Source of the DNA: a virus
Lineage: Duplodnaviria; Caudoviricetes
Direction: 5' to 3' (one strand)
IMG/VR virus record: IMGVR_UViG_3300032038_000007
Location: 1-64,000 of that record
DNA length: 64,000 bases
The notes below the pieces were generated by a model. It made no database searches. It was given only the letters and a program-made list of their open reading frames with translations, and was not told the origin of the DNA. This document shows positions 1 to 14,528 of this stretch, in pieces. The position numbers and the translations under genes were made by a program. Each line of letters starts with the position of its first letter. Within the stretch, counting starts at the first letter, position 1.

Positions 1-39
1 TTGAACATCTATAAAAAAAAAAAAAAAAAATAAACTGGG

Positions 40-378
40 TCATTTCTGACCCAGCACACCGCCGTATCGTGCATCAATCACCCTGTCATCATAGACCGTT
101 TCCGTTCCCATATCCTCCATCGTCATCGCCACCACATCGCCCACGTCATAGTCTTCGATGCCGTAGAACACCCAGCACAGACCCGCGCCATCCTCCACCA
201 CCACGCAATCCATAGCGTGATTCACCGACCGCACCACACCACACGAGGGGTAGATGTGAGACGCGAACTCATCCGCACCCGCTCCCTTGCCCCTCATATA
301 GCCACCCTGCGCCGCGAACACCATCACCAGCAGAACCATCACCATCACCAGCGCGAAGACCACGTTACTGTTACGCAT
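40..378 (-). CDS. Hypothetical protein with N-terminal TM/signal segment
   Basis: GGAGG SD; minus-strand promoter TTGACA(440-435)-N17-TATACT(417-412); TGA stop. Confidence 0.75.
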   Translation of the reverse strand: MRNSNVVFALVMVMVLLVMVFAAQGGYMRGKGAGADEFASHIYPSCGVVRSVNHAMDCVVVEDGAGLCWVFYGIEDYDVGDVVAMTMEDMGTETVYDDRVIDARYGGVLGQK

Positions 379-535
379 TCGTTTCTTCCTCCCTTTCTTT
401 AGTACACTCGTAGTATATCATATCCCCTTCCAAATGTCAACCCCTTTCGCACAAAAAACTTTTCTCAAAAATCTATTGACAACCCGACACATTTATGCTA
501 TACTCTATACGTGCCCAAGAAAAGGAGGAATCGCA

Positions 536-871
536 ATGATGACCTATTACAAGATGACTGGCGTGTTAGCCCCGAATTGTACCCCATGGTGCCAAGGCCA
601 CACTATCTATTACGGCATCAACTCAGAATCATGGCTTGGAGTTGAAGGGATTCGCATCAGAACTTTCGAGAAATTTGGTCTTCACAACATTCGCCAATAC
701 GGTAGACTGAATGATAAGGAAGTTTCCCCGATAAAAATGGCACTGTTACTGCTGACGGGCAAGGTCAAAGTTGGCGATGTGCATGATATTTATAAGTTTC
801 GTGAACCCGTGTATATCACTGGCAAACTCCCCCACTTGTGGACTCCCCGCCCGTATGGAAAAAGGGCTTGA
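536..871 (+). CDS. Hypothetical protein
   Basis: AAGGAGG SD before ATG 536; promoter TTGACA 476-N17-TATACT 499. Confidence 0.75.
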   Translation: MMTYYKMTGVLAPNCTPWCQGHTIYYGINSESWLGVEGIRIRTFEKFGLHNIRQYGRLNDKEVSPIKMALLLLTGKVKVGDVHDIYKFREPVYITGKLPHLWTPRPYGKRA

Positions 872-962
872 CAAACGGTTGGCCCGTATTCAGCACCGGG
901 CCATTGTAAATTAGATGTTAAACATCTACAAAAATCCTAAAATAAAAACCCCTTTCGGGGTC

Positions 963-1175
963 TTAGTCATAGTAGTTCTTCACAACCGCCACAATAGCCA
1001 CCACAAGCACAATGAGAATAGCCACCGCGAAACCAATCCACAGGGGAGCCAGCACCCACACCCACGACCAGTCAATCACACCGCACAGCTTCAGCGTAAT
1101 GAAGATAAGCGTCAGCACACTGCCGAATCCCAGACCGCCATTAGCACCGTTGTTGTTCCTGTTGTTGTTCTTCAT
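963..1175 (-). CDS. Small two-TM membrane protein of a common phage family (LKLxGxIxWSWxWVLAPLW)
   Basis: AAGGAGG SD; recognisable motif; own minus-strand promoter. Confidence 0.75.
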   Translation of the reverse strand: MKNNNRNNNGANGGLGFGSVLTLIFITLKLCGVIDWSWVWVLAPLWIGFAVAILIVLVVAIVAVVKNYYD

Positions 1176-1247
1176 ACCAGTTTCCTCCTTCAATCTTTCC
1201 CGGTGTCTCTCACCGTGATTATATTGTATCACATCCAGTGAATTTTG

Positions 1248-1719
1248 TCAAGCACTTTTTTCATTCAGTGTGAAAGAAATTTCTGTCCAGCTTTCGGAAC
1301 AATTCCTCAGTTCTTTGGTGAAGCCTTCAAGTTCAAACTTTTCCATCAACAGGGTGCGCATTTTACCGCCCCACCACGTGCAATGGACTTTCCAGAAGTG
1401 GCGGTCTTTCCTTTTGAGATACCGCTTAGCGATGCTATAATTCCAGCCCATACCGTTGTCGAAGAAGTAAAAACTTTTATCTTCGGCGTCCCAATGAGAG
1501 CGGCGGGGGAATGTAGTAGTTCAGAATTTCAGTAGCACGCTCTTCACTCCATTCTTCTTTGCTGTTGCGCCACGAGCGATATTTGCTAACCAGAATACTG
1601 CCACCCCAGATGGGGAACAGAATCACGCGCATGACCTTATAACCATTCTTACACCACCACTTGCGCGCCTTGTGCTTCTTCTTGTCGCCCTGCATTGCCT
1701 TGATAACTTCGTTTGTCAT
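1248..1719 (-). pseudogene. Hypothetical gene split by a 1-nt frameshift at a G5 run (1505-1509)
   Basis: Removing one base joins ORF 1477-1719 (...YYIP) to RRSHWDAEDKSFYFFDNG-MGWNYS... (ORF 1248-1451); could be a sequencing error. Confidence 0.6.
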
Positions 1720-2014
1720 GGTAGTTACTTCCTTTCTATCCCCTTGGGACATTCTCATTATAACATGGCGTATGAGAAAAGTCAATAACAGATTTTTAAC
1801 AAGTTAGATGTTCAACATCTATAATCAATGCTTGACTTTTATCGAATCTTCGACTATAATAATAATTGTCAGGAGGGACAAGAGGACCTCACGAAGCCAC
1901 CATCGAGTGGCTACCGCAGAGCGGTGGGTGTGAGAAATCAAATGAACCTCAAAGCGAACCTCAAAAAACCTCTTGACAAAAACCACAATCTGTGGTACAA
2001 TACAATTGTTCCAA

Positions 2015-2088
2015 GGGATGTTAGCTCAGCTGGTTAGAGCACTCGCCTGATAAGCGAGAGGTCGGTGGTTCAAATCCACCACGTCCCA
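2015..2088 (+). tRNA. tRNA-Ile(GAU)
   Basis: Full cloverleaf; anticodon arm CTCGC-CTGATAA-GCGAG; promoter at 1973-2001. Confidence 0.95.
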
Positions 2089-2143
2089 TGCGTGGGCCTA
2101 CAACGGTTGGATGTGCAGTAGGCATCTAGCCCCGCATTTCAAA

Positions 2144-2186
2144 GCGCCTGATGAGAGAGTAACGCCTCGAAACATTCATGTCGCGC
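2144..2186 (+). ncRNA. Type I hammerhead ribozyme
   Basis: GCGC-CTGATGA-GAG(agtaacgc)CTC-GAAA-CA(ttca)TG-TC-GCGC: intact core, stems I-III pair, GUC cleavage triplet ending at 2182. Confidence 0.8.
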
Positions 2187-2372
2187 GGAGTCACCCTAGC
2201 GGGGGAATAACTGGTGACCAGTCCAACCACACGGTATCCATAAGTGCGGGGTCACACCCTATGTTGCGGAGCCGCAAGCGCAATGCAAGCGTTAACCACC
2301 AGAGTAGTTGGTGCTACTCCGCTGTTGTAAGAACCACTATGGATACTGCCCCTGATACTCACAGGGGAACAT

Positions 2373-2445
2373 GGACTCGTAGCTCAACTGGTAGAGCAGG
2401 AGACTGAAAATCTCCGTGTAGGTGGTTCGACCCCACCCGTGTCCA
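2373..2445 (+). tRNA. tRNA-Phe(GAA)
   Basis: Cloverleaf; anticodon arm GGAGA-CTGAAAA-TCTCC. Confidence 0.93.
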
Positions 2446-2559
2446 TTATTTCAATTAGATGTTCAACATCTAATATCAATTCAATTTTCCCTTGACTATT
2501 TCCCATATCTATGCTATACTTTCATTGTGCTCAAGGAGCACAAGAAGGAGGAAAGAAAA

Positions 2560-2823
2560 ATGGAACTGGTCATCAACACGTGCTTCGGTGGGTTCGGTCT
2601 CTCGAAGAAGGCGCACGCTTGGCTTGGCACTAACGACACTCCTGACCGCGAAGACCCGCGCCTTGTGGAATGTGTTCGCACTCTTGGCGAAGAAGCTAAT
2701 GGCGAGTTCGCAGAGCTGGAAGTCGTCGAACTCCCTGGCGGCGTGACAGACTGGGAAGTCGAGGAGTACGATGGAGCTGAATCCGTAATTTACGTACTGG
2801 ACGGAAAAATCCACCATCTGTGA
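2560..2823 (+). CDS. Conserved phage hypothetical protein (VINxxFGGFGLS...EYDGAES)
   Basis: AAGGAGG SD; promoter 2492-2520; C-terminal motif shared with 12069-12467. Confidence 0.85.
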   Translation: MELVINTCFGGFGLSKKAHAWLGTNDTPDREDPRLVECVRTLGEEANGEFAELEVVELPGGVTDWEVEEYDGAESVIYVLDGKIHHL

Positions 2824-2941
2824 GCGTAGCTCACACTCCTTATATTAGATGTTGAACATCTAATAACTTAAAATTTCCTCTTGACTTTCTTCCCAAAGTA
2901 TGCTACAATAAAGATACCCCAAGAGGAAAGGATGAAACTGG

Positions 2942-3379
2942 ATGAAGGAAATCTGGTTCGATATGGACGGCACTGTGGCTAACCTCTATGGCGTAGAAGG
3001 TTGGCTTGAAGACTTGATTCACGAACGCACCCGCCCCTACAATATGGCGAAGCCGATGGTGAATATGGCGTTGCTTGCCCGTTATCTGCATAAGGCACAG
3101 CGCAAGGGATATAAGGTGGGCGTGATTTCGTGGACTGCCAAAAATGGCAATGACCTATACAATGGCGAAGTCGCCCTTGCCAAGATGGCGTGGCTTCACA
3201 AGCATCTGCCCTCTGTCGTGTGGGATAAGATTCACATTGTACCATACGGCACTGACAAGCGCAAGACTTGTGGCGGTGGTATCCTGTTCGATGATGAAGA
3301 GGGCAACCGCAAAGCGTGGGGCAAAGGCGCCTATACCCCTGATATGATCCTGGCTGTACTGAAAGGAGTAACAACATGA
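2942..3379 (+). CDS. HAD-superfamily hydrolase (5'-nucleotidase-like)
   Basis: Motif I FDMDGT and C-terminal ILFDD; promoter 2881-2909. Confidence 0.8.
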   Translation: MKEIWFDMDGTVANLYGVEGWLEDLIHERTRPYNMAKPMVNMALLARYLHKAQRKGYKVGVISWTAKNGNDLYNGEVALAKMAWLHKHLPSVVWDKIHIVPYGTDKRKTCGGGILFDDEEGNRKAWGKGAYTPDMILAVLKGVTT

Positions 3380-3549
3380 TGCTGATTGAAGATTTGACCA
3401 AAGCACTATGGATGTTAAATGGCGAAGAACTCGGCGCAGTCTCCGCTATCTATGGCGGAAAGATTTATATGGCGGATGGTCGTGTTGCCTTTGTGGATAT
3501 GCTTGTGAAACTTTATGACAAGACTTACAATGTCACGAATAATGTATAA
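3376..3549 (+). CDS. Hypothetical 57-aa protein
   Basis: AAGGAG SD; ATGA overlap with upstream stop. Confidence 0.65.
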   Translation: MMLIEDLTKALWMLNGEELGAVSAIYGGKIYMADGRVAFVDMLVKLYDKTYNVTNNV

Positions 3550-3646
3550 AATTCGTGACATCCTCAATAATTAGATGTTCAACATCTAACCGGAGTGTTG
3601 ACAGCCGTCCACCTATATGGTATAATCGCATTGTAAGAAAGGAGCG

Positions 3647-3883
3647 ATGAAAATGCGTGATGCGACAAAGGGTACCTACAACGGCGAAACCACCTACTGC
3701 CCTGTGAATGCCTATGGTGACTGCCCCTACTGTGACCAGTGCTGTGTCTGCCACATCGAAGACCCTATGGAAGACTGCGATGATTGGGGTATGTTCTACT
3801 CCTCGTGGTTTGAGTGGGTAACTCTGGGAGATATGGCGCCCTCTCCCGACGAACCTATCGAAGAAGAAGACCTTCCGTTCTGA
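3647..3883 (+). CDS. Small Cys-rich acidic protein
   Basis: AAGGAG SD; promoter 3598-3626; CP..CPYC..C.C cluster. Confidence 0.7.
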   Translation: MKMRDATKGTYNGETTYCPVNAYGDCPYCDQCCVCHIEDPMEDCDDWGMFYSSWFEWVTLGDMAPSPDEPIEEEDLPF

Positions 3884-3898
3884 TGGAGGACAATAACG

Positions 3899-4102
3899 AT
3901 GAGTAAGAAAACCGCAGTGCGGCAGCAAGTTGAAGCTATGGCAGAAAACTTCTGTGAAACTTTTCTTGACGATTACCAGTGCGCAGACTGGGGCGTCACT
4001 GCAACAAAATTCGCCCGCTTATGTATTGACGAATTGACTAAACAGCTTACCCAGCTTGCTTACGAACTGGATGATGAGAGGTTGGAAGATAATGAAGATT
4101 AA
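3899..4102 (+). CDS. Hypothetical protein
   Basis: GGAGG SD; operon position. Confidence 0.7.
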   Translation: MSKKTAVRQQVEAMAENFCETFLDDYQCADWGVTATKFARLCIDELTKQLTQLAYELDDERLEDNED

Positions 4103-4247
4103 GTTCACGCAGGAAGAAATGGACGCAATTGAAGTCGCCTATTATGACCACGAGGGTATTGTGCCATGCAATATTTCCCATACTCCCAAAGAAAAAGAGT
4201 ACCGAATGTTACAACAGTTGTGGCTGAAAATGGCAAAAAATAGGTGA
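4092..4247 (+). CDS. Hypothetical protein
   Basis: Overlaps upstream stop; GAGG SD. Confidence 0.55.
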   Translation: MKIKFTQEEMDAIEVAYYDHEGIVPCNISHTPKEKEYRMLQQLWLKMAKNR

Positions 4248-4398
4248 AAAGAAAGCAAAAGAATTATGGGAGGAGTAATCCTCCTTCTGCCATTAGATGT
4301 TCAACATCTAATTAAAAATTTGACTTTTATCGAAAATCGTAGTATAATCAAATCATCAAGTGAAGGAAAACACTTAAAAACCAGAAAGGACTTACCGA

Positions 4399-4758
4399 AT
4401 GAACGCTATGCAGAAGAAGATTGCCGCCCGTGCCGCCACCATCTCCGCCCTGTCCCAGATTCTCGAGGAACTCGCCGCCGTCCAGTTCGGAGACGCCAGC
4501 TTCGCGGTTCTCCAGAATGTGGAAGGTCAGGAGATTTGGACTGAAATCTCTGTGAAGGCGAAGGCGTTCACGCCCACCAAGACTTCCCCGGAATTTGACC
4601 CCTTCGTGGCCGCTGAGGAATGGAAGACTGACAAGGAAATCAAGGCCAAGGAGAAGGCCGAGAAGGCCAAGGAAAAGGCGGCGAAGATTGCCCGCGATGA
4701 AGCCCGTCGCGCCGCCAAGAACAACACCGAATCCGGAGAGGAAGAGGAGGGGGAGTAA
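4399..4758 (+). CDS. Hypothetical protein with Lys/Glu/Ala-rich helix
   Basis: Promoter 4320-4348; SD; strongly biased GC3-rich codons. Confidence 0.85.
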   Translation: MNAMQKKIAARAATISALSQILEELAAVQFGDASFAVLQNVEGQEIWTEISVKAKAFTPTKTSPEFDPFVAAEEWKTDKEIKAKEKAEKAKEKAAKIARDEARRAAKNNTESGEEEEGE

Positions 4759-4910
4759 TCCCCTTCCTTTTTCTGTAAACAAAAGTTAGATGTTGAACAT
4801 CTATTATTCTCGCCCAAACAAAAAAATTTCCTCTTGACTTTTCTCCAATATATGATATAATTCTATTTGTAAAGAGGAAGGACACCTCACAAACCGGAAA
4901 GGGATACCGT

Positions 4911-5594
4911 ATGAAGAAGACCATCATGATTCTGGACACTGAGACTTGCAACATTGAACAGACAGAACAGGTCAAAAGGGGTAATAATCTGACCTACAAT
5001 ATCGGTTGGCAGATTGTTACCCCTTGCAATGGCGAAGTCCTCGAACAGCGTTCTTACCTGATTGATGAGATTTTCCTTGGTGAAACCACCCGCATGACTT
5101 CGTGCTACTATGCGGAAAAAATTCCCCAATATTTTGATGGCTTGTGGAACGGTGAATATGAAATCGAAAGTTTCTTCGCGGTTCTGCTGAGCATTGAGCG
5201 GGCTTGCAAAGAGTACAATGTGACTGCGATTTGTGCACATAATGCCGCATTCGATGTGGATGCTCTGAACACCACTCTGCGCTATCTCACGGGTTATGAG
5301 TACATTAGGGCACTTCCGCAGGGTATCGAAATTTGGGACAGCATGAAGATGGCAAATAGCATCTTTGGCAAGCGTCCCACTTATCGAAAGTTCTGTCAGG
5401 ATAACGGTTTTATGACAAAACACGCCACGCCTCGTCCTCGCCTAACTGCCGAAGTTCTTTATCGTTTCATCACTAACGATATTGACTTTGAAGAAGAGCA
5501 CACCGCCCTTGCCGATGTCATCATTGAAACGGCAATCGTTCTCGCTTGCTACCGCTCCCACAAAAAATTCGACCGTGTTCTGTATCCGGCTTGA
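4911..5594 (+). CDS. DEDDh 3'-5' exonuclease (DnaQ-like)
   Basis: ExoI LDTET, ExoII HNAAFD, ExoIII EEHTALAD. Confidence 0.88.
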   Translation: MKKTIMILDTETCNIEQTEQVKRGNNLTYNIGWQIVTPCNGEVLEQRSYLIDEIFLGETTRMTSCYYAEKIPQYFDGLWNGEYEIESFFAVLLSIERACKEYNVTAICAHNAAFDVDALNTTLRYLTGYEYIRALPQGIEIWDSMKMANSIFGKRPTYRKFCQDNGFMTKHATPRPRLTAEVLYRFITNDIDFEEEHTALADVIIETAIVLACYRSHKKFDRVLYPA

Positions 5595-5723
5595 TGCCGG
5601 ATTTTTTCTTGGACAACTTAGATGTTGAACATCTAACAATTTCCTATTGACAATTTCAAATCCGCATGATATAATCTATACGAAAGGTGAAGGAAAACAC
5701 CACAAACCAGAAAGGGTACCGCA

Positions 5724-6020
5724 ATGTTCCTGTCTCACTATCTGCATGAAATCATCCGCACGCCCAAGAATGAGATTGTCCTGCTTGATGTGACCGACAC
5801 CCCTGACTGCGGCTGGGAAGGCGCGTATGCCATCTTCGATGAGGACGCTTTCCGCGACTGGTGGCAGGAAGCTGGGATTGATGAGGACTACACCTTCGAG
5901 GACATCTGCGAGTGCGGCGAAGAAGCCGAAGCGTTCGACAACTGGATTGTGGTCAGCAACCACCACCGTTCTCCCGAGGTTGCCGAACGGCGTCTGCGCA
6001 AGGCCATTGCCAATCTGTAA
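5724..6020 (+). CDS. Acidic hypothetical protein
   Basis: Promoter 5647-5675; SD; terminator after stop. Confidence 0.8.
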   Translation: MFLSHYLHEIIRTPKNEIVLLDVTDTPDCGWEGAYAIFDEDAFRDWWQEAGIDEDYTFEDICECGEEAEAFDNWIVVSNHHRSPEVAERRLRKAIANL

Positions 6021-6151
6021 TAGCCCTTCGGGGCTTTTTATTTTTAAGAAAGTTAGATGTTCAACATCTAATAGTCCTATTGACAATCATACTTCGCTAT
6101 GATACAATCCCTATGAAAGGTGAAGGACACACCCTAAACCAAAAGGAGGAA

Positions 6152-6397
6152 ATGGAAATGAAGAAACTGGAAATTGCACGCATCGTTGTTCTGATTCTCG
6201 GCGTGGTTGCGGTGGTGATTGCCATGTGCGTGCGCATTCCCTATGAGATGCGGGAATACAATGATGGCGTTTGCCCCGCCTGCGGTGGAATGTACCATCT
6301 GGTGGGTACTCCCACCAAAGTTGCCAACTACTTCACCTATGAGTGCGAAGACTGCGGGCATACAGTGCTGACACACCTCTGCCTTTCCGGAAAGTAA
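6152..6397 (+). CDS. Membrane-anchored zinc-ribbon protein
   Basis: N-terminal TM; CPACG...CEDCG; AAGGAGG SD. Confidence 0.8.
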   Translation: MEMKKLEIARIVVLILGVVAVVIAMCVRIPYEMREYNDGVCPACGGMYHLVGTPTKVANYFTYECEDCGHTVLTHLCLSGK

Positions 6398-6411
6398 CAA
6401 TAAAGGAGGAA

Positions 6412-6729
6412 ATGAAAATGAAGATTTCTCGTCAGGAATGTGCCTACATCATGAATCGGCCGCAGGGGTATTTCTACAACTATGAATTACAGAAAACTTC
6501 AGATATTACCTATCGTATCACTCCCATTGTCAAACTCCTTCCTTATACTCTACTGTTCATTCCGATTCATTTTTGGCAAGCACTCTGGTGCGTATGGGAT
6601 GGCGGATTGAAAGAATTTCGCATTGAGCCTCGGCGTGGTTGCCCGGACACTTTCTTCAAGCCTTGCCCCTACAACCCTAAAGATAGCCGATGGGAACGCG
6701 CAGATGAAATCTACCAGAAGCATCAGTAA
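6412..6729 (+). CDS. Hypothetical protein
   Basis: AAGGAGG SD. Confidence 0.75.
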   Translation: MKMKISRQECAYIMNRPQGYFYNYELQKTSDITYRITPIVKLLPYTLLFIPIHFWQALWCVWDGGLKEFRIEPRRGCPDTFFKPCPYNPKDSRWERADEIYQKHQ

Positions 6730-6865
6730 GGGCGCAAGCCCTTCCCAACTTAGATGTTCAACATCTAACTCCTGTTCCTCCAGCCCTATTGACTTTTCCC
6801 GCCAATATGATATAATCATACTTGCAAAGCGGAAGGAAAACCGCACAAACCAGAAAGGCAACCGA

Positions 6866-7627
6866 ATGTATATCATGGTCATGGACACGGAAACCACGGG
6901 ACTGGAAAAGTGCTTCTGCTACGACTTCGGCTATGTCATCGTTGACACGGATACTCATGAAATCGTCAAGCGTGAGCACTACATCGTGGAGCAGATTTGG
7001 CACAATCTCGCCCTGTTTGAGAGTGCTTACTACAAAGAGAAGCGCCCCAACTATGTCCAGCTGATGCGGGCGCGGAAGGCCACCATGGATAAGTGGGGAT
7101 ACATCATGCGCAATGCGGCGCGTGATATTCGTGAGTATCATATCACTGATGCCTACGCCTACAATAGCACTTTTGACGACAAGGTTATCTCCTACAATTG
7201 CGATTGGTACAAGTGCATCAATCCTTTTGATACCGTGGCAATCCATGATATTTGGGGCTATGCTTCTCAGTTCATCACAAACTCCCCTGACTATCGCGCC
7301 TATTGCGAAGAGCACTCCCGCTTTACTGATACTGGAAATTACAGCGGGAGCGCGGAAAGTGTCTATCAGTTCATTTCCCTTGAGTTCGACTTTGTAGAAG
7401 ACCACATGGGGCTGTATGACAGCGAAATCGAAGCCGCGATTCTCCTCTACTGTCTGGACAAGGGCGCGAAATTGGGCGAAGACTACAAGGTGAATAAGGT
7501 GCTGCCCAGGGTGCAGGAGAAGCCCTTCACCATCAAAGTCAACGGTCAGGTGATTTATACCGGATTGTACATCAAGAGTTACAAGCGCAATGATGTTTAT
7601 AATTTCACAACTATCGAGGGGAATTAA
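6866..7627 (+). CDS. DEDDh 3'-5' exonuclease (paralog of 4911-5594)
   Basis: MDTETTG, AYNSTFD, EDHMGLYD; shares SxYYxEKxPxY and DFxEEH-like blocks with 4911-5594. Confidence 0.85.
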   Translation: MYIMVMDTETTGLEKCFCYDFGYVIVDTDTHEIVKREHYIVEQIWHNLALFESAYYKEKRPNYVQLMRARKATMDKWGYIMRNAARDIREYHITDAYAYNSTFDDKVISYNCDWYKCINPFDTVAIHDIWGYASQFITNSPDYRAYCEEHSRFTDTGNYSGSAESVYQFISLEFDFVEDHMGLYDSEIEAAILLYCLDKGAKLGEDYKVNKVLPRVQEKPFTIKVNGQVIYTGLYIKSYKRNDVYNFTTIEGN

Positions 7628-7687
7628 TCCCCTCTAACCAAGTTAGATGTTCAACATCTAACTTTCTCTTTATAAAAAAATGGCGCT

Positions 7688-8215
7688 TTACAGCGCCAAA
7701 CAGGCATAGTCAACAATCACCGGGCGGCCACCGCGCAGACCGAAGTTCCTCCAATGAACATCACGAACATGGTCAAAAAGATACCTACATTCCTCATCAC
7801 TCAGATAGTTTTCAATTATACGGGAATCCTCGGCTTCCTCATCCCAATCCGGGGGGATATTCCTGACACGAGGCATCACGTACGCCACATACCCATTGCA
7901 CTCAATGCGCTCAATTGCGGCAAAAAGGTAACCAAATCCGTCCTTCTTTGCCGTCTCATACATTTTCACTTCTTCCTCACAGCCACCAAACATCATCCCT
8001 TCATTGCCATAGTCAATCTTAATGGCATAATCGGAAGTAATGAACACAATCCGGGTAAGACCATGGTCAACCATCACGTGCCTATGGTATTGCTGATTGA
8101 ACAGTTCAACCGCACGTTCAAACTCATATACCTTATGGCACCCCACGATATACGGGAGAAGCATGGAGAAGCATTTGAGAGCGCGCACCTGATAACTGGA
8201 CTTCATTCGTAACAC
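7688..8215 (-). CDS. Minimal protein-kinase-like (PKL/APH-fold) protein
   Basis: GLTRIVF, YAIKID, EVKMY, DVHWRNFG, PVIVDY motifs; minus-strand promoter next to palindrome 8271; true start may be ATG 8206. Confidence 0.75.
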   Translation of the reverse strand: MLRMKSSYQVRALKCFSMLLPYIVGCHKVYEFERAVELFNQQYHRHVMVDHGLTRIVFITSDYAIKIDYGNEGMMFGGCEEEVKMYETAKKDGFGYLFAAIERIECNGYVAYVMPRVRNIPPDWDEEAEDSRIIENYLSDEECRYLFDHVRDVHWRNFGLRGGRPVIVDYACLAL

Positions 8216-8299
8216 TTCCTTTCTACAATTGGAAGTATATCATAAGACCGTACCTTTGTCAACACGGAACTTAGATGTTCAACATCTAATTTGACTCTT

Positions 8300-8750
8300 G
8301 TCAAATATTTGACTAACTATAATCCCGCAACGCCATAGCCAAAATTTTCCATCCTTGTCAAATATTTGACTTATAATATCAACGAATCCAGGAGCTGGAA
8401 AAAGCTGGAAATTGGGAGCTGGGAACTATCAACCGCAGGTACCCTAAAGCTGGGACACCGCCCGCAGCTGCACCATCCCGACCGGCTTGTCAAATATTTG
8501 ACATAGGTTACATTTATAGCTCACAGTCAAATATATAACTAGCAGCTGGATATCTAAGTGACCGTACAGCGGGTGGGAGCTGGGCCACCCGCAGCTGGCA
8601 GCCTCACCCCTGTTCACATTACAGATATGCTGTCAAATACTTGACAGCGCCGGTGGAGGAGTGTATAAGCTGGACTTGTAAAATTTTTACAGCTGGCAAT
8701 AAAAAAAGAGCTGGAAGTTACTCTTCCAACTCATCCGCCTATTTAGCTGC
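8300..8750. repeat. Cluster of GTCAAATATTTGAC palindromes and same-strand AGCTG(G) repeats
   Basis: Palindromes at 8300, 8357, 8489 and 8632 (1 mismatch); about 12 AGCTG between 8393 and 8750. Confidence 0.85.
8701..8732 (-). terminator. Intrinsic terminator of the helicase-like gene
   Basis: Minus strand GAGTTGGAAG-AGTAA-CTTCCAGCTC-T7. Confidence 0.75.
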
Positions 8751-10121
8751 GACCAACTTAAAAAAATTATTATCCGCTATAACCTCAGCTTCTACCCAAT
8801 TGCCAGTAATACGATAGCAGTACACAGCATTCGCACCAGGTGTAGGACGCTTACGAGCTTTCTCTACCTTATATCCTACAGATGGCAGTACGTCCTACAG
8901 CTTATTCCAACTCATAATACGCGCTTGTCGTTTCGTCGCCTACTACTCATCAGCACTAATTTCGGGGACCGCAAGATATTCTGCGAGCCCACGGCACTAC
9001 TAAACGGTCAGCCACTTATCCTTGTACTCAGCTGGGACTTCCGCAATCAACGTCTTAACATGTCGCTAATATGGGAACGTCTAACGAGCTGCTTGTATAC
9101 GATCAGCCTAGTAAAACGAATCAACAATAAGATGCTTGAATCGCTCATCGCTAATGCTAAATCCGCGCTCAAACGCCTTAGTAATAACGACAAAATCATA
9201 TTCAGGCGGCACCATATGCAACGTTCTAATCCAATTAATTACTCGCAGCTGCTCCTCATTTAGAGGCCAATCCGCATTCTGTTCAGAGTGTATCTCAATA
9301 GCGTTAAAGCCCTATTGATTTGCCGCCCGCACAATACTCTGATTATGCTCTATCGAGGGCGAATAACACCAATAGGCAATATTTGGAAAAGGCTAAAGCT
9401 CATGTATGTGGTCGATTACATTTCTAAAGTACACATCACTAGCAGCTCGGAAACCAGCTTCAATTTTTCCTTTATTGCTAGCCTACACAAGACTAGAATA
9501 ATATTGGCGCGCACGCTCAGGAGTGGCGGATAACCCAATGCACAGTATCCTCCCCTCATTTACTATGCGCTCCCAATATCCAAGAAGTATGAGAGGCATG
9601 TAAGCTTTCTTCGTAGAGTGCTACTGTATGACAGCAAGGATCTCATTATTGGTACTTTCTGCGCTGGCAAAATCGCTGGTACGAGCTTTCTAAAAAGCTG
9701 CCGCCGCAAAATCAAATATGCTATCGCACTCATCCCAGCATATAACATCTATGGAGCTGAGAAAATCTGAGTTTCTCTTTAGGATACGCATACCAAAACC
9801 TTGATAGCACATTATACCTATTTTATTGGTATCTTCTGCCGACCAGCTGCTCTCACTCTATTCCCATAACTCATCGGCGTCGCAGCACATATCCGGGTAC
9901 TACTATATTATATCGTTTTTAAGGAACGTAGTATCTGTAAGGAACAAAATACGCCGCGGCTGATGGTCACGTGTAAACTGTACCAAATTGTTAACGGCCC
10001 AGTAAGTCTTCCCAGTCCTGACGCCGCAATCTAGTATGTTGTAATGGCCGCGCGAAAATTTTAATTCTCCAGTCTACTAAAGGTCAGTGACGGTTACAGG
10101 AGCGATTTTATCACTACTCAT
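8718..10121 (-). CDS. SF2 helicase-like protein, 467 aa with TAG=Gln (absent from ORF track)
   Basis: GAGGTGAGG SD; manual translation gives Walker A CGVRTGKT, Walker B CWDECD, motif III GLSAT and motif VI-like IQAAR; about 19 in-frame TAG and no TAA/TGA until 8718. Confidence 0.88.
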
Positions 10122-10141
10122 TTCTTCCTCACCTCACTATA

Positions 10142-10179
10142 ATTATATCATGGTATTTATTCTGTGTCAAATATTTGAC
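10142..10179 (-). promoter_or_regulatory. Consensus sigma-A promoter of the helicase-like gene; its -35 overlaps a GTCAAATATTTGAC palindrome
   Basis: TTGACA(10170-10165)-N17-TATAAT(10147-10142); palindrome 10166-10179. Confidence 0.8.
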
Positions 10180-10880
10180 AGAGAAAAACATTAAAAGTAA
10201 CATACTAAATGCTACATAATAATAATATTAACTATACAAAAATTGTAGTCACTTGAACTGTGTCATTTTTTGAATACTGCCCCCCCCCCCCTATATAGTA
10301 TTCAAAAAATAACACACATTTATAACTATAAAAAAATTATAGTTAAAATCCTATATTATATATATAGTAAATATTACGAGCAGTGCGCGTCAGCGCACTG
10401 CGAGTAATATTTACGCCGGCGAAGCCGCGAAGCGGCTTCGTGGGATCTGGTCTAATAACTAGTTAAATAAAAAATTTAATAAATTAAAAATTATTAAATT
10501 AATTAAAATTATATTAAAAAATTATTTTAAATATTTAATAATTATTAATATAATTATAATACAATTGTAATACTTTTGTAATATGTTGTAATTTGTTGTC
10601 AAATATTTGACAAAAGTTTGTGGAGAAATTTTGTAGTGAATAATACATTTTTAACTTTTGTAAGAAAAAATAAAAGTTAAATAGTTGACAAATGGTCAAA
10701 AATGTGACCACACCCATCTATTCATCCACTCATGGTCATTTTTATCCACATTTTTTCACCACACCCCACCCCATAGTCTATAATTTTTTCCGCCCATTAT
10801 TGGTATGGCTACCCGCTTTCCTTTCCTTTCTTTTACTATTTTACGATGTACCCGTATAGCTCCCATACACACCCTTTTTC
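10180..10880. other. Very AT-rich non-coding region with inverted repeats and a C12 run (origin or terminus candidate)
   Basis: Inverted repeat TTTTTTGAATACT...AGTATTCAAAAAA around poly-C at about 10280-10291; GC hairpins at about 10369-10440; palindrome at 10598; almost pure A/T at 10463-10560. Confidence 0.55.
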
Positions 10881-13654: not shown

Positions 13655-13855
13655 ATGACTTTAAAAGAATGTTTAGAGCGCGCAGTCAATGCTGGTTTAC
13701 CAGTAGCATTTCTTGCTAAAAATATTGGCCGCGATTCATCTACACTTTATAAGTGGCTAAGTGGGGCACGTACCCCCTCTCAAGAAGTACAAAACGAAGT
13801 TAGAGAAGAACTAATACGTTTAAAAGCAGAATGGAATAATATCGAGCTTGAATAA
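13655..13855 (+). CDS. XRE-type HTH protein
   Basis: LAKNIGRDSSTLYKWLSGARTPS; GGAGGTG SD. Confidence 0.8.
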   Translation: MTLKECLERAVNAGLPVAFLAKNIGRDSSTLYKWLSGARTPSQEVQNEVREELIRLKAEWNNIELE

Positions 13856-13868
13856 GGAGGCACATTTT

Positions 13869-14051
13869 ATGGCAGACGAGCGTAAATGTTACAAAGTGTT
13901 CACTTGGAAGTTGGCTAATAAACTTAGCGACTTAGGCTTTCGCCCAGTGGGACAGAGACTTAACTATAAAGACCCAACTAGAAAGGTAATCTTATTTGAA
14001 GATACTCCTGCGTTGCGGCAAGCAATTAAAGAGCTTACGAAAAAAGCGTAA
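13869..14051 (+). CDS. Small DUF5659-like protein
   Basis: AAGGAGG SD; VFTxKLAxxLxxLGF...N...FEDTPAL pattern. Confidence 0.6.
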   Translation: MADERKCYKVFTWKLANKLSDLGFRPVGQRLNYKDPTRKVILFEDTPALRQAIKELTKKA

Positions 14052-14069
14052 GCAAGGAGGAGCATTATT

Positions 14070-14528
14070 ATGGCATCATATATTGGCATTGGAAAAGCCG
14101 CGCCGAAACTCGCTTTTGAAGGGGACAAATGGGATAATCGCGGCACATTTAACAGAGTAGAACGACCAAACGGTTGTTTATTTGGACAGCAGCCTGCTGA
14201 AATTAGAGATTTTATAATGAATGAATTGACTGGCGCCCAAGGTAATTTATTAAAAATTATGTGGCTTTTACTGAGTACTGATGTTGGCTTCGGCGTTTCA
14301 CAACAGTGGATTATGAACAGTACAGGAATCTCTAAAGATAAATACTATGATTCTCGAATAATTTTAATTCATTTAAATTGGTTAAAATATGAGGAAAATA
14401 CCCCTGACGGTGCCTTGCTTGGTGTTAATTATACCTATCTTTGGGAGCAAGCTAAGCTTCCAAAAGAGAAGCGAGCAAATACACAGGCAAAAATAAAAGA
14501 AGCACGTCAATTATACAATCTTAAATGA
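14070..14528 (+). CDS. Putative winged-helix replication initiator
   Basis: HTH-like SQQWIMNSTGISKDKYY; directly followed by iteron-like repeats. Confidence 0.55.
   Translation: MASYIGIGKAAPKLAFEGDKWDNRGTFNRVERPNGCLFGQQPAEIRDFIMNELTGAQGNLLKIMWLLLSTDVGFGVSQQWIMNSTGISKDKYYDSRIILIHLNWLKYEENTPDGALLGVNYTYLWEQAKLPKEKRANTQAKIKEARQLYNLK

Follow-up and report, generated by a model that had tools for sequence, protein, structure and literature searches.

A helically phased palindrome between the early gene cassettes of a rumen-type phage: a likely shared regulator site and recombination seam

The window analyzed here comprises the first 64,000 nucleotides of the IMG/VR virus record IMGVR_UViG_3300032038_000007, a 166,616 bp record of an uncultured rumen-type phage, which the window opens. 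The left end of the window is occupied by an array of small gene cassettes separated by copies of a short palindrome, and it is this palindrome and the array built around it that concern us. Twelve matches to TTAGATGTTNAACATCTAA are found in the window (starting at 911, 1804, 2455, 2845, 3571, 4293, 4786, 5618, 6053, 6750, 7643 and 8271), nine of them exact and three with one mismatch at the last base, with a spacing of 390–893 bp, while none is found in 100 shuffles. A first-pass annotation of the same DNA had reported these 12 copies, together with a half copy at the edge and the end of the array at 8289, and the count holds; the start of the array, however, does not lie in the window. The final ~138 bases of the record duplicate its first bases (except for an A-run, 12 versus 18), which makes the map circular or permuted and identifies the half copy at positions 1–12 with the site at genome position 166472, which in full (166472–166490) reads TTAGATGTTGAACATCTAT. 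The whole genome has 39 sites, which form a single block of ~21 kb running across the record ends (153756 to 166472 joined to 1 to 8289) and follow one another fairly evenly, every ~300–900 bp; a whole-genome scan found no site in the other 145 kb. The G+C content of this early block is 46–49%, as against 35–40% in the late region, whose genes were translated with TAG read as glutamine.

The first element of the window is the right half of a palindrome (1–12), promoterless and lying between two convergent terminators. The next copy (911–929, one mismatch) is located between convergent 3′ ends, with no promoter, and is followed by a reversed unit (930–1803, minus strand) with promoters at 1223–1251 and 1757–1785 and genes at 963–1232, 1248–1451 and 1477–1785; a membrane protein, assigned to phrog_1374 by a family match, is encoded within this unit. 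The palindrome at 1804–1822 stands between divergent promoters, the minus-strand −35 element lying 18 bp to its left and the plus-strand −35 element (1832) 9 bp to its right. The latter belongs to an RNA cassette (1832–2446, plus strand) with promoters at 1832–1860 and 1973–2001 and genes for tRNA-Ile (2015–2088) and tRNA-Phe (2372–2446). The ~280 nt between the two tRNAs (2089–2371) have no family assignment and are probably part of the same transcript. Further to the right, palindromes are found at 2455–2473 (−35 at 2492, gap of 18 bp), 2845–2863 (−35 at 2881, 17 bp, in front of a cassette with a 5′-nucleotidase-like gene at 2942–3379), 3571–3589 (−35 at 3598, 8 bp, then three small genes), 4293–4311 (−35 at 4320, 8 bp, then gene 4399–4758, whose family is present in 23 of 28 arrays), 4786–4804 (one mismatch; −35 at 4834, 29 bp, then a DEDDh exonuclease-like gene at 4911–5594), 5618–5636 (−35 at 5647, 10 bp), 6053–6071 (−35 at 6080, 8 bp) and 6750–6768 (−35 at 6789, 20 bp, then a second DEDDh exonuclease-like gene at 6866–7627). 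The perfect palindrome at 7643–7661 again lies between convergent terminators and is promoterless. The array ends with a reversed single-gene cassette (7662–8270, minus strand; gene 7688–8215, phrog_4301; promoter 8234–8262) and with the last palindrome (8271–8289), 8 bp upstream of the minus-strand −35 element at 8262.

One design is repeated across the 39 sites: a GC-rich terminator hairpin with its T-run, a few bases, the palindrome, 8 bp, and a −35 element (TTGACW or TTGCWW), followed after 17 bp by a TG-extended TATAAT, a leader that often contains a small hairpin, a Shine–Dalgarno sequence and one to three small genes. All units are equipped with a consensus sigma-A promoter and most of them also with a terminator of their own, and some lie in reversed orientation. 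A consensus scan of positions 1–8700 placed promoters matching 11–12 of 12 positions after nine window sites on the plus strand and minus-strand promoters next to sites 1804 and 8271; a promoter of this quality and a terminator hairpin occur at nearly every junction. These promoter and terminator scans bear out the unit layout that had been described from the letters alone, including the promoterless copies at 911 and 7643 and the two reversed units. About 35 of the 39 sites are phased upstream of a sigma-A −35 element. The gap between palindrome and −35 is 8–10 bp at most sites in this genome and otherwise 17–20, 28–29 or 39 bp, and over ~700 sites in ~27 related contigs the gaps have a main peak at 9 and minor ones at 19, 29 and 40, with almost none between; a phased sigma-A promoter is present at 87% of 684 sites. 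The earlier opinion that the array fits a simple operator poorly is contradicted by this distance, fixed at 8–9 bp or increased in steps of ~10 bp. Four sites in the genome have no promoter (166472/1, 911, 7643 and 154864). The first three sit between convergent terminators, and the fourth is degenerate and lies upstream of a 1.3-kb AT-rich stretch. This stretch (154883–156141), located within the array, has no open reading frame (ORF) with a ribosome-binding site; it may have arisen by insertion or be what is left of a decayed cassette. Among the 684 sites, imperfect copies make up 23% of the promoterless ones versus 8% of the promoter-bearing ones (Fisher p = 4e-5).

The scan of the full genome and of relatives that the first-pass annotation had proposed gave, besides the 39 sites described above, arrays in related phages: the exact word occurs in 67 stretches of ~27 IMG/VR contigs of 11–190 kb, with 8–41 sites each. 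Confinement of the sites to one block was seen in each of nine genomes that are complete or nearly so. The array DNA of the relatives is ~70% identical to that of this phage over at most 2.9 of 23.5 kb, and the core proteins are 40–70% identical (five complete genomes). Since the arms are nevertheless invariant across relatives while the central three bases vary, often asymmetrically, the real motif is TTAGATGT-N3-ACATCTAA, with 8-bp arms and a free 3-bp centre. Thus, the description of the element as a 19-bp palindrome stands for its symmetric arms, but not for conservation over the full 19 bp. The centres of the half-sites are 11 bp apart, that is, one helical turn. A 169-kb related phage, IMGVR_UViG_3300021399_000004, has the same arms around a 4-bp centre, in ~35 copies, and is a natural spacer variant.

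Other lineages have the same geometry with other words. In 79 loci collected with a conserved exonuclease-like cassette gene as bait, and in which inverted repeats were counted de novo, the 8+3+8 arrangement is found with TTGGATGT, TTAGGTGT, TTAGGTGG, TTAGACGT and TTAGACGA, as well as with TCGTACGT, GTAGTCTG, TTATCTGT and TTACTGTA. The words TTAGATGT, TTGGATGT and TTAGGTGT are interchangeable. The lineages with other words each show a dominant gap to the −35 element plus ~10-bp steps (e.g., 12/23/33/44–47 and 13/23/33). A search of 596 Gb of bacterial genomes gave 118 stretches with the word, as against ~139 expected by chance (596e9/4^16); arrays turned up there only on tiny contigs of Oscillospirales genomes assembled from metagenomes, and these contigs are probably phage DNA that was mis-binned. 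Short contigs binned to Acutalibacteraceae, Oscillospiraceae and Bacillota have 2–5 copies of the palindrome, a weak hint that the hosts are Oscillospirales. A megablast search of the block against deposited phage genomes returned just a tRNA match, and a full-text literature search for the half-site words returned no relevant paper on the word.

The two arms of the palindrome behave as separate units. In genome G008, symmetric sites number 19 of 38, where free assortment of the halves predicts 19.0, and in genome G005, which has many hybrid sites, the halves of mixed words assort independently. This independence fits two half-sites contacted by protein and argues against a selected hairpin. 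Moreover, the helical phasing to the −35 element suggests a protein that works together with RNA polymerase on one face of the helix, and the combination of lineage-specific words with a chance-level count in bacteria points to a factor borne by the phage rather than to a host regulator. Two features of an operator set are present in the array: symmetric half-sites one turn apart, which vary independently, and phased gaps of 8–9, 18–19, 28–29 and 39–40 bp.

The palindrome is also the place at which related arrays cease to resemble each other. In the closest pair of arrays (96% identity), the two members of which were aligned around each end of a homology block, eight of nine junctions pass from near-identity to a complete lack of similarity exactly where the palindrome begins or ends. 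Over 13 pairs of at least 85% identity, 44% of 194 homology-block ends inside arrays lie no more than 20 bp from the centre of a site, versus 8% for random positions; upstream block ends cluster at the upstream edge of the palindrome and downstream ends at its downstream edge. Breakpoints falling exactly at the palindrome, the test that had been named for a cassette system of the integron kind, are thus found between related phages. A smaller second peak of breakpoints lies 60–79 bp further downstream, in the shared, conserved leader. Cassette order and orientation were compared by clustering the ORFs of the arrays. The cassette with gene 7688–8215 is forward in eight related contigs and reversed in seven, always between two palindromes, and other cassettes are likewise reordered and flipped between relatives. 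Given homology edges at the palindrome and a cassette found in both orientations, the pattern of cassette exchange is real. After an inversion between two symmetric copies, one copy should be left without a promoter, flanked by convergent terminators, and the other should be flanked by divergent promoters, which is the arrangement seen at 7643/8271 and at 911/1804; we read the copy at 7643–7661 as an inversion scar.

No dedicated enzyme for this exchange is evident. The absence of a visible recombinase, noted before for the window, extends to the whole genome: the tyrosine recombinase profile PF00589 has no match in the 166.6 kb (the controls were positive in 14 of 14 genomes), and profile searches of the genome found no serine recombinase, no Y1 transposase (RAYT, PF01797) and no ParB (PF02195), with the control genomes giving the expected results. 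The genome does code for a Sak4-like annealing protein, a RecJ-like exonuclease, a two-subunit type II topoisomerase, a DnaB-like helicase and a primase. In view of the Sak4-like and RecJ-like enzymes and the lack of a dedicated recombinase, the exchange is best read as driven by homology or annealing at the longest exact repeat.

We conclude that the word is most likely, with a probability of about 0.6, a site for a shared regulator of the early promoters that serves at the same time as the seam along which cassettes recombine. In this reading, TTAGATGT-N3-ACATCTAA would be bound by a sequence-specific dimeric DNA-binding protein, probably encoded by the phage. The protein would sit at about −53 (or −63, −73 or −84), on one face of the helix, from where it would act on sigma-A RNA polymerase at nearly all the early promoters of the ~21-kb block. 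Its action would most likely be a coordinated switch-off or timing of the early burst and not activation, because the promoters are already close to consensus: 82% of the proximal promoters are within one mismatch of TTGACA. The sign of an activator, weak −35 hexamers confined to the proximal position, was looked for and the pattern is absent. As for the second function, general or annealing-type recombination, presumably relying on homology, would cross over inside the word, because cassettes that are otherwise unrelated have no longer exact repeat in common and because the word is identical on the two strands. Crossovers between copies would delete, duplicate, swap or invert the promoter–gene–terminator unit that lies between them.

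Several points weigh against this reading. Four promoters inside the block have no palindrome (412–440, 476–504, 1223–1251 and 1973–2001), and since promoters such as those at 412–440 and 476–504 do without it, the site is not needed for promoter function. Among the promoterless copies, 77% are perfect, which may reflect a second, promoter-independent role of the word, or recent inversions. The 13 pairs of arrays share ancestry, so that the 194 block ends are not all independent events, and crossovers within 19 bp are short for classical homologous recombination. Lastly, the binder is represented by candidates, none of which is secured. Two HTH_3 proteins (window 13655–13855 and genome 83760–83957) are poor candidates, as a homologue is detectable in just one and two, respectively, of five genomes with this word. 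Another candidate is a MarR-like winged-helix protein of the core genome (MarR_2/HTH_24; genome 90749–91096). It has an Ala/Lys-rich basic tail, its gene follows immediately on the two type II topoisomerase genes, and it is conserved in 21 of 25 relatives, some of them without a detected array. It was also set aside, because its recognition helix is identical in lineages with TTAGATGT, TTGGATGT and TTAGGTGT and does not covary with the word, although these words are interchangeable. The third candidate, a winged-helix family encoded in the array itself, was not detected in four lineages with the same architecture.

This array-encoded family is nonetheless our best lead, and we tentatively put it forward as a possible binder of the word. 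Its members have ~110 residues and occur as two to four paralogues per genome (here 160483–160824 and 165217–165552). The AlphaFold model (pLDDT 92.8) consists of a long N-terminal helix followed by a predicted winged helix; its top Foldseek matches are the DNA-binding domains of Fur, SmtB, PerR and MarR, with weak E-values, and its neighbours with a Pfam name in the protein atlas, HTH_24, HARE-HTH and Mnd1, are all winged-helix families. The lineages with TTAGATGT, TTGGATGT and TTAGGTGT share a conserved recognition helix, from which that of the TTACTGTA and TCGTACGT lineages differs. A bolder idea, which we consider unlikely, is that the palindrome and these paralogues constitute a self-contained, phage-borne system, in which the same complex would time transcription and drive the exchange, inversion and capture of cassettes. 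Each lineage would then carry its own pair of word and protein, and the system would be a counterpart of the integron without an integrase. As to the HTH_3 proteins, they belong to two paralogous three-gene modules (window 13655–14528 and genome 83760–84491), each made up of the small HTH_3 protein, a ~60-residue protein with a ‘FEDTPAL’ motif and a protein of ~110–150 residues; by eye, the modules resemble those of replication origins or organisers.

The exchange of cassettes may also be viewed as primary. The palindrome would then serve as the core site for a dedicated system of site-specific recombination, in which an unrecognised recombinase would actively cut out, insert and invert early-gene cassettes, and its proximity to promoters would be secondary. 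Breakpoints exactly at the edges of the palindrome are what such a system predicts, as is one cassette in both orientations between two sites, since a symmetric site permits both deletion and inversion; the promoterless copies are mostly still perfect, and lineage-specific words would also fit a co-evolving recombinase. Yet a circular map that is 95% complete shows neither a tyrosine or serine recombinase nor a Y1 transposase, a promoter accompanies every cassette, and the idea does not explain why the −35 distance changes in steps of 10 bp. Moreover, the second peak of breakpoints in the leader suggests homology rather than a fixed point of cleavage, and on balance we think a dedicated system of this kind has only an outside chance of being correct. 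A structural or topological role appears more doubtful still. Here the palindromes would be regularly spaced sites for a type II topoisomerase, be it that of the phage or the gyrase of the host, or for a protein that coats or protects DNA; the factor would manage supercoiling or shield the early DNA, which is heavily transcribed and possibly injected first. It is true that copies are found between every pair of strong transcription units, convergent ones included, that their spacing is fairly even, and that the topoisomerase encoded by the phage is adjoined by a winged-helix protein with a basic tail. However, that protein also occurs in relatives without a detectable array, and a topological factor predicts neither the helical phasing to the −35 element nor the decay of promoterless copies. 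The proposal, made at first sight, that the sites serve to coat or protect the first-injected DNA finds no specific support: it accounts neither for the phasing nor for the restriction to promoter-proximal positions, and the map does not define the physical genome ends on which first entry of the block would depend.

It is very improbable that the word acts as a nucleic-acid structure, be it a DNA cruciform or hairpin, or an RNA hairpin formed in read-through transcripts, with the role of an insulator, a booster of the terminator or a processing site. The word can fold as DNA into an 8-bp stem with a 3-nt loop (−5.1 to −8.6 kcal/mol, a weak hairpin), it comes directly after terminators, and the terminator scan flags one copy (7640–7664). 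The stem is, however, AT-rich, and it is invariant rather than covarying; the independence of the halves leaves a stem mismatch in half of the G008 sites and in about a third of those in G005. In addition, the palindrome lies outside normal transcripts, being downstream of terminators and upstream of start sites. An N4-type hairpin promoter, a Chi-like site and the target of a homing endonuclease were also considered, but were dropped because a consensus sigma-A promoter lies 8 bp from the palindrome, the distance is phased and the half-sites vary independently. Equally hard to credit is the operator of a host transcription factor, exploited by the phage to time its early genes. Arms that are invariant across phages whose core proteins have diverged so far would be explained by a host factor, and no universally conserved phage-encoded binder was found among the candidates; but related lineages use different words in the same geometry, and in bacterial genomes the word is at chance level, its arrays there looking like mis-binned phage DNA.

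The closest described system is that of the PeSL (promoter-early stem-loop) cassettes of T4-type phages (Arbiol et al., 2010, PMC2839356; Comeau et al., 2014, PMC4122927), for which recombination between motifs has been proposed as the driver of plasticity in the early region. In both systems, a plastic region of small early genes, most of them unknown, is interspersed with copies of a composite of terminator and strong early promoter of the host type, and the insertions, deletions and replacements that distinguish related phages are bounded by the motif. Excised mini-circles arising by exchange between adjacent motifs are a further mark of the PeSL system. In PeSL, however, the stem-loop has no constant sequence, varies in its placement with respect to the promoter and is itself the terminator, whereas here an invariant 8+3+8 word, placed between a GC-rich terminator hairpin and the promoter, is helically phased and changes as a word between lineages. 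Furthermore, the crossovers in the present arrays map to the 19-bp word itself and inversion of cassettes is documented, and the phage is TAG-recoded, is not T4-like and has a host of the Gram-positive type, as judged by the sigma-A promoters. A second comparison, with integrons, had been raised by the first-pass annotation. What has stood of it are the homology edges at the palindromes and the reordering and flipping of small accessory-gene cassettes, which are split by palindromic junction sites and are gained, lost and reordered as in integrons. The mechanism of the integron is not supported: neither a PF00589 match, as expected for IntI, nor a serine recombinase is present; in place of attC sites, with their variable and imperfect fold, there is one invariant word with halves that do not covary; and instead of promoterless cassettes expressed in one orientation from Pc, the cassettes have their own promoters and terminators and occur in both orientations. 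The integron thus fails on every defining test. The missing Y1_Tnp (PF01797) and PF02195 matches likewise separate the array from REP/RAYT elements and from operator sets of the KorB/ParB type.

For the regulatory side of the main reading, the p4 protein of phi29 offers a parallel. This small dimeric early protein binds inverted-repeat sites upstream of the sigma-A promoters A2c, A2b and A3, on a defined face of the helix, touches RNA polymerase and represses strong early promoters. Its sites are a handful, in one regulatory region, as compared with 39 sites over 21 kb in the present phage, and we know of no role of p4 sites in recombination. Control of many loci by a single protein through one repeated word is exemplified by the stoperators of cluster A mycobacteriophages (e.g., L5), in which dozens of copies of a short repressor word are found in intergenic spaces. 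Stoperators are asymmetric and orientation-dependent, lie in transcribed DNA, block elongation and are bound by a temperate repressor; in contrast, the sites described here are symmetric, lie upstream of promoters in the early block only, and belong to a phage without an integrase.

If a shared regulator does bind the palindrome and cassettes do recombine through it, one short word would be the single handle on about 35 early promoters of a large lytic phage, and the same word would make the early ‘host-takeover’ set modular, allowing genes to be swapped, duplicated or flipped without breaking their expression signals. This would link the shut-off of early transcription in large phages of Gram-positive-type hosts with the rebuilding of fast-evolving accessory regions. 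Words that change under a constant geometry would also represent a natural set of orthogonal operator–protein pairs, and the 19-mer could be used as bait for the regulator. Many uncultured TAG-recoded phages from rumen and gut have this design, and their early block is also the portion that uses the standard code.

The cargo of the array comprises the two DEDDh exonuclease-like paralogues (phrog_20187), the 5′-nucleotidase-like protein, the small membrane protein, tRNA-Ile and tRNA-Phe; the remainder are mostly proteins without a family assignment. Pfam searches with 20 array proteins gave just a weak 5′-nucleotidase match and the membrane-protein match, and neither Rfam families nor tRNAs were detected when the left part of the array was scanned for them. 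Three palindrome-bounded units of 190–360 bp (genome 156142–156692 and 156988–157238) have a good promoter and no credible ORF; Rfam and ARAGORN returned nothing for them, and they may encode small RNAs. Finally, a second palindrome, TGTCAAATATTTGACA, begins right after the last site of the early array. Six or seven copies are present, against 0.08 expected by chance, at 8298–8647, 10164–10181 and 10596–10613, and flank a minus-strand gene (8718–10179). Lying where the early block gives way to the next region, they may serve as operators for a further regulator.

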